NCBI GenBank assembly: GCA_964016885.1 | Contig: OZ024744.1 | Coordinates: 136,400,001 to 136,464,000 of the forward strand | Direction: 5' to 3' | Source of the DNA: Eledone cirrhosa | Taxonomy: Eukaryota | Length of the DNA: 64,000 nt | Shown here: positions 59,313 through 64,000 of the stretch, in pieces | How the letters are laid out: each line of letters starts with the position of its first letter | Numbering within the stretch: the stretch's first letter is position 1 | The notes under the pieces: generated by a model | Databases searched by the model: none | What the model was told of the DNA's origin: nothing | The model's input: only the letters and a program-made list of their open reading frames with translations | Position numbers and translations under genes: made by a program

Positions 59313-60351
59313 ACCAGATAGAAAAATGCGTACAGCAAAAAAAAGTAATATCGTTGGAATATAAACCTTTAAAAATACAGGACAAGAAACTAAAATAAAA
59401 CTTTAAAAGAATAGGACAAGAAACTAAGATAAAACATTAAAGAATTGGACAAGAAATAAAAAATTTTACAATAATATTAGTGGCAAAATTTTTATTGGTA
59501 AAAAATCGAGTTCCACATTCAGAGGGCGTCGTCAGACCGGAGGGATCATTTGATCCTGGTTTGAACACCAATTGGGCCATAACCATACCCCTAGTTTATC
59601 AATCGGCGACACGCCTCATGTGTCATGCATAATGTGAATGGACCCATGGGCCCATGAGCACAGATCTTGAGCAGCAGCGGACGGTCTTGTCGTCCCGCTC
59701 ATCCTTGATCTTGACCAACCCGTCCATCTTCTCCTTGCATCTTGTCCTTGAGTTCAAGTCCGGCAGTCCAGATGAATGCGTGCCACAGCTTTCTGGTACA
59801 GGAAGGGGGAGCAGGAGGACTGGAGGGATGACGGGACAGAGGGAGGGAGGACCGGTGGTTGAGGGAGGTGCCGTAGTCGGTGGTCAGAGTCGACATCTTG
59901 TCCTGGTCGTCTTCTCCATCTTCGTCTGGTGTTGCGGGACCAGAAGTGCATTCTTGGAGGAGACCTGCAGCTGCATCGGCCAATTCTTCTTGCAATGGTC
60001 ATTCTGACAGAGCAGAACTGCTCAACCAACCAACCCCAACCAGAACCAACCGCTCAGGGGCAACGCACAATGAGAGCATGACAATTATTATGCACTAATC
60101 AAGAAGATACTGGGGCATAGCACAGGAAACGAATAAAAAAATTTTGCCACTAATATTAATGTAAAATTTTTTATTTCTTGTCCAATTCTTTAAAGTTTTA
60201 TCTTAGTTTCTTGTCCTATTCTTTTAAAGTTTTATCTTAGTTTCTTGTCCTATTCTTTTAAAGTTTTATTTTAGTTTCTTGTCCTGTATTTTTAAAGGTT
60301 TATATTCCAACAATATTACTTTTTTTTGCTGTACGCATCTTTCTATCTGGT
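59313..60351. mobile_element. Inverted-repeat cassette 1 (Foldback/Pack-MULE-like architecture), 1039 bp
   Basis: Left arm ~59313-59496 starts accagatagaaaaatgcgtacagc. Right arm ~60132-60351 ends gctgtacgcatctttctatctggt. The arms hold 33-34-bp subrepeats (taagataaaactttaaaagaataggacaagaaac), 3 on the left and 4 on the right. The interior is ~630 bp and GC-rich. No TSD is visible. Confidence 0.8.
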
Positions 60352-60352
60352 C

Positions 60353-61129
60353 TACTATTTTTTAAGGCAATGCAAGCAACAACTATCTAATAATTAAATG
60401 ATCATAGTGAATTACTGACAAGTGATTGACATTTTAAAGTTCTTTTGAGTATAATTGCAATCTAGTTGAGGCAACTGGCTTAATGACAAAGCTAGTAAAT
60501 CTTGAATGCATTTGAGATGATTAGTGCATAATAGTGAATTGGTGAAACTTGTGCATTTCAATTGTGTTACAATAGATGTAAGTTATATAGTAGTAATACT
60601 TTATCATTTTAACTTTTTAGAATGGACAAAAACCCATGCAAAGAAATGACTTTGACTGCAGTGATTCTCTCCAATTTACTTACAAAGCAAAACGTGGTCA
60701 AATACCTTATCATCTCTGATAAAATGCCCATTGAATCACTGAAAATCGGATGCATGGAATTCCTCATAAAATACACCTATGAATCGGAAGCCATCACATA
60801 TATCAATGGATATAGGGAGTTGTTCACACTGGAAGACCATCACTTCATTTGTGACTTCATCAGTTATCTCCACGATTATCTCAGACACACAATGCCATTG
60901 ATGAGAGGTGATCCAATGTGTGAGCATGTAACTAATCTTATAGAAGTTGTTATCGACCACCTGGCTTTTAGTGACATTTGACTGATTTGACTGATAATGA
61001 TGTATTTTTAAAAAGTATGTGTACATTCTTGTTACTATTTTAAGGCAATGCAAGCAACAACTATTTAATAAAATTTAAATTTAAAAATGACCATTGTGCA
61101 TTACTAGTATGATGACATTTTATTAAGTC
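60353..61129 (+). repeat. ~90-bp imperfect direct repeats (60353-60442 and 61033-61129) flanking the BACK-like ORF; a third, shorter copy at ~63288-63330
   Basis: tactatttt(tt)aaggcaatgcaagcaacaactat...aaatga..a.(a/t)gtg.attact...tgacatttta..aagt is present at both sites, and cctatttttcaaggcaatgcaaacaacaactac follows cassette 2. Confidence 0.85.
60622..60981 (+). CDS. 119-aa protein or terminal exon with a BACK-like helical domain (SPOP/BTB-protein C-terminus-like)
   Basis: LSNLLTKQNVVKYLIISDKMPIESLKIGCMEFL...AITYINGYRELF resembles the SPOP-type pattern 'L..NL..ENV..IL.LAD......LK.....FI......V....GW..M'. It is preceded by a polypyrimidine acceptor (ttttaactttttag, ends 60620) and followed by AATAAA at 61067-61072. 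Confidence 0.62.
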   Translation: MDKNPCKEMTLTAVILSNLLTKQNVVKYLIISDKMPIESLKIGCMEFLIKYTYESEAITYINGYRELFTLEDHHFICDFISYLHDYLRHTMPLMRGDPMCEHVTNLIEVVIDHLAFSDI

Positions 61130-61161
61130 ACAAAATTAGTCAGTCAGCCATAGAACAAGGA

Positions 61162-61957
61162 TCAGGTGGCAAAAACATTGGCAAAAATTTGTGTCAATTT
61201 AAGATTTCCAACATTGTTCAAATGTATATCTGGTTTGAAGTCAGATTTGTCAAATTTTGACCAATTTTCAATGTTGTGAAGATTGGGCAAGTTCAATTTT
61301 TGAATCATTTCTTTCATGCAGTAATTAAACTTTTCCAAACGAGAATTTCTCTTGCCCAAGTCATTTTTATTTTCAATTACACTTTGTGGACGTGGAATGA
61401 CACCACTGTAGAAAATGGGTGTACAGTGGTGCTTTTCCGCTATTTTCTGTAGCCTTGCAAAGAGACTCTTCCCCTGTTTTTCCGGTTTTGTGCCTCGAAT
61501 GGGCACTTTGTCCTTAATTTACAAATAAATGATTAATAAAAAATACTTGGGCAAAAATTATTGTATTACTTTGCACAGCTTTGTAGTGCCAACGGTGAGA
61601 CGAGGATACAGATCATTAGAGCCGACATGAACCACCAATACTTTCACAAAAGGACAACAGATAACAATGTTGGCGATTAACATTACCTGGCTCTGACGGG
61701 CCCCAGGTATACAAAATATCTAAGTATTTTTGTTGGTATGATAAGTAAATACATTTGAATTAATATTTTTATACCTTCTGGTCATTCGATTTCGCCACAT
61801 TTCTAATTATTGAATCACCCACAATATACTTGAATTGTGGGTAATTTTTATTCAAAAGTGCACAGACGACCATTAAACAACGGCCATGGAGATTTGTACC
61901 ATTCCCATTAAATCCTCGCCCCCAAATTGGATTAGGGGTGTCCTCGACCAATTGTTG
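61162..61957 (-). CDS. Spliced NADAR(C-terminal part)-SGNH/GDSL esterase fusion; exons 61957-61775, 61719-61570, 61512-61162; 5' exons not found in the window
   Basis: Exon A: QQLVEDTPNPIWGRGFNGNGTNLHGRCLMVVCALL (YbiA/NADAR C-terminal motif LVE....D..WG.G..G.G.N.LG..LM..R..L), then IVGDSIIRNV (SGNH block I). Exon B: IFCIPGA (block II) and VLVVHVGSND (block III). Exon C: IFYSGVIPR...FN...IENW...PDIHLNNVG (block V). Two phase-0 GT-AG introns (61774-61720, 55 nt; 61569-61513, 57 nt) join these in frame. AATAAA lies on the minus strand at 61124-61119. Confidence 0.85.
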
Positions 61958-61980
61958 CTACAAATATTCAAGAAATGAGC

Positions 61981-62157
61981 TAGATTCAAATGGGTTTTCC
62001 CTCAAAAAACATTTTTTTTTACCGTTTTTTACTGGTTTTTAATGGAAAAAAAACCGTTTGTAACTTTTTTTGGAAACTTTTTCAAGTCTGGTAAAAAACG
62101 TTTTTTTAACCGTTTTTTACTGGTTTTTTAATGGTAAAAAAACCGTTTGCAACCCTA
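61981..62157. mobile_element. Possible remnant of a small hAT-like non-autonomous element with an internal ~60-bp duplication
   Basis: The block aaaaac.tttttttt.accgttttttactggttttt(t)aatgg.aaaaaaaccgtttg.aac occurs twice (~62005-62064 and ~62093-62153). The region ends in tttgcaacccta (reverse complement TAGGGTTGCAAA, similar to hAT TIR starts). The opposite end is at best degenerate. Confidence 0.4.
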
Positions 62158-62168
62158 GTCACATATAC

Positions 62169-63285
62169 ACTAGCTAGAAAAATGCGTACAGCAAAAAAAA
62201 GTAATATTGTTGGAACAAACCTTTAAAAATACAGGACAAGGAAGTAAGATAAACCTTTAAAAATACAGGACAAAGAACTAAGATAAAACTTTAAAAGAAT
62301 AGGACAAGGAATATAAATTTTTACAATAATATTAGTGGCAAAATTCAATTGGTAAAAAATTGAGTTTCCATCATTACACCAATTACAACTATGATGTTCC
62401 GCATGCATCCACTCCAACCATGATCACTTGTCTGTCATCTTTCCCGGTCCAACTCCTCGCGAATGACCCGGCGCAACTCGGACTGGGTCGGAGCAGGAAC
62501 TGGAGGGGGAGAGGGAGGGGTACGGGTCTTGACTCTGGGACGATGACGGCGAGTGACCAAGGTGAATGGGCCCGTGTTCGACTCGGAATCCTGCTGGTCC
62601 TCGATGACACTTTGAGGCACGGTTGACGGTTCCGGACTGGCTTCATGGGCAGTGGTAGAAGGGCAGGTGGATAGGGCAGAGTGCTTCTTCCTGGGAGAGC
62701 ACTTGAAGCAGGTGAAGCCGGCGCCGGACTCGTTGAACCACTTCCAGACAGCACTGGGCATGTTGGCGCAGCAATGATGAAAGTTGAAGCAGGCGACGAG
62801 GGGGGAGGAGGTGGAGGCGTTGGTGCAGGAGCAACAGACTGCTGATTTGGGAGTCATTGTAGCTGGGGGATGCAGGCGCTGAGGGGGCTCGAGTAGAAGG
62901 GAAGAACAGAAATGAACCATGATGACTTTTCCTACATTTTTCCTGGCCCACTTCCTCATGAACCAATGAACCAGTTGGTACAACTCGGACTTGGAGGAGG
63001 AACACAAGACAGGGATCAATTTCATTGTATTGATATTTCTCATTAAGTAATTTCATGTTACTCAAATAAATCACTTTTATTTGATCAATTATCTATTTTT
63101 CCAATAAAATTTTTGCCACTAATATTATTGTAAAAATTTATATTCCTTGTCCTATTCTTTTAAAGTTTTATCTTAGTTCTTTGTCCTGTATTTTTAAAGG
63201 TTTATCTTACTTCCTTGTCCTGTATTTTTAAAGGTTTGTTCCAACAATATTACTTTTTTTTGCTGTACGCATTTTTCTAGCTAGT
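62169..63285. mobile_element. Inverted-repeat cassette 2, same arm family as cassette 1, 1117 bp
   Basis: By manual comparison 62169-62343 and 63111-63285 are perfect 175-bp reverse complements (actagctagaaaaatgcgtacagc...tagtggcaaaa), with 3 subrepeats per arm. The interior is unrelated to cassette 1. No TSD (left flank cacatatac, right flank ttcctattt). Confidence 0.82.
62389..62857 (-). pseudogene. Degenerate 5' fragment of a PHD-finger LINE ORF1-like gene (CR1/L2-type) carried inside cassette 2
   Basis: From the ATG at 62857: MTPKSAVCCSC...LVACFNFHHCCANMPSAVWKWFNESGAGFTCFKC (PHD-like C..C, C, H..C, F.C..C, with one ligand apparently deleted). A Pro/Ser linker follows, then ELRRVIREELDRER-stop and, after a frameshift, RQVIMVGVD, matching the ORF1 'E..DRERR..N(V/I)II.G(V/L).E' start of the RRM-like domain. 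Confidence 0.65.
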
Positions 63286-63751
63286 TTCCTATTTTTCAAG
63301 GCAATGCAAACAACAACTACTTAATTAAATAGTTATTACTTTAGTTACTTCTATCAAAAAATCCCAAAAATGATGTTAATGAAAACTATAGGTGAAAGTG
63401 AAGCTATTCTTTTGTGACCTCTTAGTTACTTGTACCAATTTTGAATTTAATTCAAGCTACAGTGTCAGCCTGTGCATTGGAGTCACAGAAATAAGTTGAG
63501 ATATTTTATCTAATTGGTACAAGCATCCACTCCACATGGCGGGGACATAGGTCAGATCGTGGAGCACTCACCTATCTTAAAAATATTAACTTATGATAAA
63601 TAAGAGTCATTTAAGAAAATACAATTTTTTTAAATTAGTAGGTGAGCATTAACAACTGAATCTAAATGGAGCAAATTTGCACCATTTGCATTTAGTTGAA
63701 AATAACATTTTAATTAAACATGACAAATTCTAATGCAATAGAAGGCAAATA

Positions 63752-64000
63752 TCAATTTTCACATGCAAATTTTTTTGGGATTTTTTTCACGCGCGCCATT
63801 TTTGGTCGATTTTTTGTCAATTTTTCACATGCAAATTTTTTTGGGTTTTTTTGATTTTTTTTTCACGCGCGCCACTTTTGTCGATTTTTTGTCAATTTTT
63901 CACATGATAATTTTTTTTTGGATTTTTGGATTTTCTTCACGCACGCCATTTTTGTCGATTTTTTTTGTCAATTTTTCACATGATAATTTTTTGGGGATTT
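63752..64000. repeat. Second tandem repeat, T-tract-rich, units of 65-76 bp, runs off the right edge
   Basis: tcaatttt(t)cacatg...ttcacgc(g/a)cgcca.ttttg(g)tcgatttttt recurs, with unit starts at 63752, 63817, 63892 and 63968. Confidence 0.93.

Follow-up and report, generated by a model that had tools for sequence, protein, structure and literature searches.

A predicted five-exon NADAR-SGNH esterase gene carried by a Helitron2-type element family in Eledone cirrhosa

The stretch of DNA analysed here, hereafter the window, comprises 64,000 nucleotides of Eledone cirrhosa (assembly GCA_964016885.1, contig OZ024744.1, forward-strand positions 136,400,001 to 136,464,000), and near its end it holds reading frames that look unrelated until two short introns are removed, whereupon the end of a NADAR domain is followed directly by an SGNH esterase. 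This raises the questions of whether such a fused gene exists, what carries it and what its two domains might do for their carrier. A sequence-only reading of the locus had proposed the fusion and had placed it in a DNA element, a virus or a domesticated gene. The explanation that we favour, with a probability of roughly 55%, is that of a five-exon accessory gene in one Helitron2-type family, of which the window contains a dead copy, and whose 335-residue NADAR-SGNH product was likely a dispensable helper of the element. The coordinates of the features are collected in Table 1.

Table 1. Features of the locus in window coordinates (Eledone cirrhosa, OZ024744.1).
Feature	Position	Strand	Description
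Host Helitron family 1, 3' part	59314..61161	-	Down to the element end CTGG, then T
Inverted repeat, outer arm	59314..59493		Holds the 13-nt subterminal inverted repeat 59356-59344
Inverted repeat, inner arm	60137..60358		Near the element 3' end; 34-bp subrepeats
Exon 5	61162..61512	-	SGNH C-terminal half with the Asp/His block; DxH in the window copy
Intron 4 (predicted)	61513..61569	-	57 nt, GT-AG, phase 0, 18% GC; acceptor least certain
Exon 4	61570..61719	-	SGNH block II (Gly) and block III (Asn)
Intron 3 (predicted)	61720..61774	-	55 nt, GT-AG, phase 0, 18% GC
Exon 3 (junction exon)	61775..61957	-	NADAR C-terminus, 8-residue linker, SGNH block I; stop-free
Rest of intron 2	61958..62169	-	213 nt in uninterrupted copies; an insertion at A|T, immediately behind the donor, separates it from exon 2
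Nested non-autonomous family-2 copy, 3' part	62170..64000	-	Ends CTAG, between A and T, no target duplication

The gene model first claimed for this stretch was reproduced, in that the coordinates of its two short GT-AG introns are right, the joined frame is free of stops and the GDS, PGA, GSND and DIH blocks lie where they had been placed. Exons 3, 4 and 5 (183, 150 and 351 nt, with 36-44% GC as against 18% in both introns) give 227 codons with a single terminal stop when joined on the minus strand, and just 15 of 2,229 two-intron models of the 61162-61957 stretch reach at least 200 codons. Among 20 copies the GT of intron 3 is present in all and its AG in 17. The acceptor of intron 4 at 61513 is the least certain boundary, because the frame is equally preserved by acceptors at 61474 and 61468 and profile support is absent from the first 14 residues of exon 5; one of these later acceptors may be used, since the product exceeds the LINE ORF1 esterase 4C1B by about 18 residues in the part after block III, and base composition favours 61513 over both. 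Joints of the predicted introns were absent from contigs of sequencing runs (four runs of one study, their kind not on record), which counts neither way.

The fusion is independent of the splice model, because the end of the NADAR domain and the GDS motif share one stop-free exon. Within this junction exon the NADAR catalytic Glu occupies 61945-61943 and the SGNH nucleophile Ser 61813-61811 on the minus strand, the NADAR end and the GDS motif stand 8 residues apart in one frame, the matched stretch is free of stops in seven of seven copies, and no ATG lies between the two domains. This arrangement argues against two neighbouring genes or gene fragments, from which NADAR and esterase would be made separately or by another splice pattern, a reading that we consider improbable even though an SGNH-only derivative of the element, described below, shows the esterase half travelling alone and alternative acceptors exist for intron 4.

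The window stretch corresponds to exons 3-5 of a predicted five-exon gene of 335 codons. In uninterrupted copies two further exons of 191 and 130 nt lie upstream, with introns of 54 and 213 nt, and an additional 5' exon is possible, an acceptor preceding the ATG in frame. It had been suggested that the missing NADAR exons of the window copy were displaced by upstream insertions, and they were indeed located beyond three such insertions on contig C28, past the end of the window and displaced by 4.8-9 kb: exon 2 and most of exon 1 occupy C28:136466743-136467070, with the beginning of exon 1 at 136470846-136470885. Each of the three nested insertions starts with TC, ends with CTAG and occupies an A|T site, and the innermost, a copy 99.5% identical to sister family 2, reaches C28:136466739. 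Since these insertions displace the NADAR exons, the window copy is dead and cannot make the protein; its exon 1 also has a 2-nt deletion. As a separate observation, in the stretch C28:136466739-136471755 (L021) a single small gene belonging to another Helitron has received three different Helitron-type elements, each at an A|T site, and the nested family-2 copy there has two 5' ends.

For the NADAR half, the Pfam NADAR profile (PF08719) matches the window's exon 3 at profile positions 118-159 with 13.6 bits and E 0.083. Exons 1 and 2 match positions 4-67 and 82-115 with 18.7 and 15.8 bits, so that the three pieces are collinear and non-overlapping, and their scores, obtained exon by exon, add up roughly to 48 bits against a cut-off of 35.1. 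Of the NCBIfam models only TIGR02464 matched, on exon 1 and at E 0.076. The whole-domain score rests on a profile built in-house from 14 seeds, namely one phage protein and 13 of 25 listed plasmid-collection matches (phage/bacterial), which gave 78.2 bits for spliced exons 1-3 over HMM positions 18-160 of 161, compared with 12.6-22.0 bits for the three unspliced frames and at most 4.7 bits for 1,000 shuffled sequences. When 33,964 two-intron GT-AG models of exons 1-3 were tried, 174 were open, and the chosen model ranked first at 78.2 bits, followed by one at 69.9.

Judged by its alignment, splicing thus rebuilds a complete YbiA-type NADAR in which the catalytic Glu, Lys and Glu are kept: in the alignment to YbiA, the catalytic Glu, Lys and Glu/Asp of NADARs correspond to E36, K43 and E112. 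The corresponding E43, K50 and E125 of the Phytophthora nicotianae protein have been described as catalytic or essential (PMC11543638), and a Glu in the last strand as a hallmark of the YbiA subfamily (PMC11125620). According to the former source, the phosphate is contacted by R79, W89, R93, D130 and W133 (PMC11543638); in the alignment both Trp are kept, an equivalent of D130 is absent, and Lys and Gln stand in the places of R79 and R93. The concern that loss of the Asp before the WG motif might impair catalysis is therefore correct as to the residue, which is absent, but not as to its consequence, because this Asp has been reported to make a water-mediated, non-catalytic phosphate contact (PMC11543638) and the three catalytic positions remain.

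For the esterase half, Lipase_GDSL_3 matches the window's exon 5 at E 0.0077; on this single exon GDSL_3 also gave 18 bits and E 0.0038, against a family cut-off of 27. The earlier proposal that the exons would match both families in Pfam was borne out by NADAR and Lipase_GDSL_3, with the reservation that each exon alone stays below the Pfam cut-offs. The Ser, Gly, Asn, Asp and His of blocks I, II, III and V are present in most copies. The DxH spacing, which had been seen as a second threat to catalysis, is real in the window copy, but it stems from a 3-nt deletion that is private to this copy, also against read contigs, and the family keeps DxxH in 16 of 20 copies. The resemblance of this half to LINE ORF1 esterases is the weaker of the two assignments: the 50-residue exon 4 of copy L007 had the LINE ORF1 esterase 4C1B as its single PDB match at E<=10 (E 0.35), and block I of the gene resembles that of 4C1B. 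Exon 5 found GDSL clusters in the ESM Atlas at 0.91-0.92, behind two unnamed eukaryotic clusters; folded alone, as a single-exon model, it reached a pLDDT of 47 without a fold match, and a PDB sequence search with exons 1, 3 and 5 returned chance matches only. The Pfam matches and catalytic blocks support the domain order first proposed, a NADAR C-terminus followed by an SGNH domain of the LINE ORF1 type.

It might be objected that the introns were picked to fit the motifs, and that every exon falls below the Pfam cut-offs when taken singly. Such an artefact is hardly credible, in view of the collinear and additive scores, the first rank of the model among 33,964, the AT-rich introns and the fact that the same model is open in another copy. 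This copy, on contig C2, has a fully open spliced frame of 335 codons, the sole one among the seven junction-bearing copies, with private changes that affect the triad Asp and the Gly of the WG motif. The remaining six are disrupted by frameshifts, 5' deletions or insertions; one of them, copy C4, has a 1-nt insertion earlier in the junction exon. The paralog search that had been proposed as a check was thereby positive.

The junction exon occurs in seven places of the genome (seven of eight candidates matched), 91-100% identical and all inside element sequence. These multiple copies within Helitron ends, together with their neutral decay, lend no support to the earlier labels 'viral' and 'domesticated'. 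An origin as a domesticated host gene or endogenous viral gene could draw on the frequency of NADARs in viruses and on the best ESM Atlas cluster for the junction exon, which is half viral, but it is very unlikely, given that the sequence is multicopy at 97-99% identity inside Helitron ends, that no capsid or other viral gene appears among the Pfam matches of the element's frames and that the sole viral-contig match, to an RNA-phage-like replicase contig, spanned 10 residues and was rejected as chance.

The host element, family 1, measures 12.6 kb from end to end (copy C28b) and carries the gene in its 3' part, downstream of RepHel; its main frame contains Helitron_like_N, DUF6570 and PIF1 domains and a C-terminal UCH domain. 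The 5' ends read A|TCC in 12 of 12 cases and are followed by a hairpin (z -4.4) and then by a 13-nt repeat that recurs inverted 31-43 nt from the 3' end, where CTGG|T was found in 25 of 30 loci and there is no hairpin (z -0.4). The target lies between A and T, and an empty versus a filled site could be shown for the nested family-2 copy. DUF6570 is described as a marker of the HLE2 group and UCH of its subgroups c/d, and a 5' stem-loop before the left repeat as the 'HLE2-reverse' layout (PMC11417382). Family 1 has the RepHel with DUF6570 and the short asymmetric terminal inverted repeats of HLE2, without its insertion into TT. Exo_endo_phos, the mark of Helentrons in the strict sense, is absent from the family 1, 2 and 4 frames scanned, which carry UCH. 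The TC/CTRR ends and A|T target would fit a canonical Helitron1, but the 5' hairpin, the lack of a 3' hairpin and DUF6570 do not. On these domain markers and ends the host is classed as a Helitron2-type element, in agreement with the first suggestion of a DNA element.

The element resembles HLE2 c/d and the 'HLE2-reverse' elements FoHeli3-5 in having DUF6570 with UCH, a 5' hairpin followed by the 13-nt repeat and no 3' hairpin (PMC11417382, PMC5148889), and, as described for FoHeli3-5, this repeat recurs in inverted form about 30-40 nt from the 3' end (PMC11417382, PMC5148889). Unlike HLE2 as described, its ends are TC...CTRR in A|T, like those of Helitron1, and a long inverted repeat closes the 3' end (PMC11417382). 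Such a repeat was observed at the 3' end in all four sister families, with arms of 110-220 bp and a spacer of 0.65-0.85 kb that differs between families (window 59314-60358 and 62170-63285; L055 1814-2930; L057 806-1913; L061 3511-4477). The family-1 spacer is flipped in 2 of 28 orientable loci and also in L006, a hint of recombination, or of replication of a hairpin type, at the 3' end.

The gene-bearing form is the rarer one. A DNA search of the 3.0-Gb genome gave 275 candidates, of which 40 were scored and found 97-100% identical; six of these cover the query in full, and the other 34 start near 61813. Depth of read contigs in run X1 was about 33 over the junction exon versus about 720 over exons 4-5, copies without the NADAR half outnumber those with it by about 20-fold, and 33 of 40 scored matches to the NADAR region retain just its first 105 nt. 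Deletion derivatives thus dominate family 1. Across 20 copies we counted 14 synonymous changes, 38 non-synonymous changes and 1 stop, where neutrality predicts proportions of 0.24 : 0.73 : 0.03; the copies change neutrally, as expected for dead copies, and give no indication of selection during the gene's residence in the element, and the selection test on these 20 copies, with one shared change, has no power. In the commonest derivative (L007 1360-1539; its junction corresponds to window 61813) the stretch from the RepHel leader to SGNH block I is deleted over a short microhomology, so that the RepHel start codon and the esterase share a frame and the nucleophile position is taken by a Ser (YKS for GDS). 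In 9 of 14 copies nothing interrupts this frame before the first donor, and one further copy has an in-frame deletion; the in-frame join may be chance.

A helicase-UCH search revealed three sister families, whose protein identities are about 86%, 54% and 50%. When the 335-residue model was compared with 20 stretches, 15 downstream of RepHel and 5 upstream, the family-1 locus alone gave a match at E<1, and the 14 loci that represent the three sister families, some with open RepHel frames of 2,230-2,245 codons, yielded no homologue downstream of RepHel. Family 2 shares both flanks of the cargo, not the cargo. Since sister families exist without it, the gene is dispensable for the element. Family 4 has several near-identical open RepHel-UCH frames of 2,230-2,245 codons (L070 2986-9675, L073 2957-9691) and was therefore probably active recently. 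A further frame of 122 codons (window 60613-60981, plus strand) lies inside the family-1 cargo, with a short GT-AG candidate intron before it and no credible Pfam match; it may represent a second cargo gene.

In families 1 and 2 the N-terminus of RepHel includes a 2A-like ribosome-skipping motif with Cys replacing the usual Asp (L071, L074 2450-2850; C2), and a Helitron with a 2A motif was not mentioned among the matches listed in a literature search. Degenerate PHD-like cysteine patterns, without a Pfam PHD match, occur in the family-2 spacer (window 62435-63052, minus strand), and in both families 1 and 2 such patterns also follow the RepHel stop, in two or three repeats (L055 280-600; L026 7450-7656). 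Both 2A-like motifs and PHD-like pieces are typical LINE features. An origin of the gene in a LINE ORF1 is plausible, because its lineage carries these pieces and Tx1 ORF1s of the oyster have been described with NADARs (PMC12477816).

According to the principal alternative, the gene was only ever a passenger: it would be real but shaped elsewhere, in a host gene or in a LINE ORF1 that later gained introns, and after a single capture by the family-1 founder it would have been of no help to the Helitron. Helitrons are known to pick up genes, the cargo occupies a single point in a 3' region that is otherwise shared, one of its flanks is duplicated (61074-61032 and 60399-60353), sister families do without it, most copies have deleted part of it, and both oyster Tx1 ORF1s with NADARs (PMC12477816) and LINE ORF1s with such an esterase (PMC3905857) have been reported as possible sources. 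This alternative is a serious one, short of even odds. What speaks against it is that no source gene was found in the genome: matches to the junction exon are all element copies, and the GDSL_2 match elsewhere is unrelated, the spliced SGNH domain scoring 2-4 bits against this only GDSL_2 match of the genome in a pairwise comparison in which shuffled sequences reached 7.9. A genome-wide NADAR search gave four candidates, of which only two, both element copies, were confirmed, and PF14606 had no match over the genome, such source-gene searches being loose enough to miss a diverged, intron-split host gene.

Homologues outside the genome were sought with exon 5, exon 1 and a phage NADAR, for which nothing scored in word-index searches among longer proteins, and with exon 5 by phmmer against 1.84 billion representatives, with no match at E<=0.001; these blanks are weak, because every query from the gene was a single exon. 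Among metagenomes, RepHel recovered one weak contig of 2.3 kb.

The Helitron2-type family has spread a NADAR-SGNH gene that its sister families lack, and under the favoured reading of an accessory gene it would, in the founder element, have been spliced, expressed and long under selection, as suggested by the combination of great distance from database proteins with the retention of eight catalytic positions and four clean introns. Phage NADARs counter DarT1. NADARs have been reported to act on guanine-ADP-ribose in single-stranded DNA (PMC11543638, PMC11125620), and, if the gene did help the element, its NADAR might have removed ADP-ribose or a similar N-glycosidic adduct from the single-stranded DNA or RNA intermediate of the element, and the esterase might have bound membranes, or bound or trimmed lipids, as has been proposed for LINE ORF1 esterases (PMC3905857). 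This pairing of adduct removal with lipid binding or trimming is tentative, and we regard it as rather unlikely in just this form. Considerably more doubtful is the specific case of counter-defence, modelled on the phage NADARs, in which an active NADAR, tethered to a membrane-binding esterase, would strip host-added ADP-ribose from the single-stranded DNA of the element; if it were true, animals would use nucleic-acid ADP-ribosylation against transposons.

The closest known parallel is texim, described as intron-containing SGNH genes related to CR1 esterases, multicopy and tied to fish Helitrons (PMC4021074). Both are intron-bearing multicopy SGNH genes associated with a Helitron, dispensable for Helitrons generally and of open function (PMC4021074). 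In contrast to texim as described there, the present esterase follows a NADAR in one predicted fusion, is located 3' of RepHel within both termini and belongs to a gene with five exons and introns of 54-57 nt; the likeness is one of description and does not imply orthology, and a NADAR is not mentioned for texim in the accessible part of this source (PMC4021074). NADARs of the YbiA family have been reported in the Pol of Gypsy elements of Ectocarpus and in the ORF1 of Tx1 LINEs of the Pacific oyster, with an unclear role (PMC12477816). Like the NADAR studied here they are YbiA-type and carried by a transposable element, but their carriers are retrotransposons, for which processing of an RNA intermediate was proposed, whereas ours is a rolling-circle DNA element in which the NADAR forms part of a separate, spliced and esterase-fused gene (PMC12477816).

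With regard to the individual domains, the whole NADAR aligns with E. coli YbiA and the P. nicotianae NADAR, keeping the Glu, the Lys (+7), the last-strand Glu and both Trp (PMC11543638, PMC11125620); it differs from these in the absent Asp before WG, in two changed basic phosphate contacts and in being eukaryotic, spliced and known from sequence alone. The esterase has the block order, motif style and S/G/N/D/H positions of the zebrafish ZfL2-1 ORF1 esterase (PDB 4C1B; PMC3905857), unlike which it lacks a coiled coil, has the extra residues after block III, lies outside a LINE and contains introns (PMC3905857).

Esterases in Helitrons (texim) and NADARs in retrotransposons were thus known before, and the NADAR-SGNH fusion appears to be new as Helitron cargo. 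The literature search found neither a NADAR in a Helitron nor a NADAR-SGNH fusion, within a scope outside of which lay Repbase and subscription journals. Table S11 of HELIANO names 20 captured domains, neither NADAR nor SGNH among them, from a survey that used unspliced ORFs (PMC11417382), and NADAR, GDSL and SGNH were not found in the accessible portion of its supplementary text (PMC11417382). ORF-based surveys miss cargo of this kind, because every exon remains below the Pfam cut-off until spliced. The fusion adds the NADAR domain and the NADAR-SGNH architecture to the known cargo of Helitrons, provides a second case, after fish texim, of a LINE-type esterase riding in a Helitron, and places NADARs in a third class of mobile element beside Gypsy and Tx1. 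The role of animal NADARs has been described as open (PMC11125620); the present domain is compact, retains its catalytic residues and is directly expressible and assayable.

Two minor observations concern LINE-like sequence elsewhere. On contig C18 (L079 1414-2814, minus strand) there is a single-copy, intronless frame of 466 codons that combines a zinc-finger-like region with a coiled coil and an SGNH domain resembling 4C1B (E 2.8e-6); it has the look of an orphan LINE ORF1 that may have been domesticated. In the window, positions 1-59312 consist of a 59-kb satellite with units of about 80 bp, as judged by a repeat scan of its last 1.3 kb and a composition that is uniform throughout. One frame of this satellite seems to resemble the motif that follows the reverse transcriptase in RTE LINEs, and the satellite may have grown from a LINE fragment.
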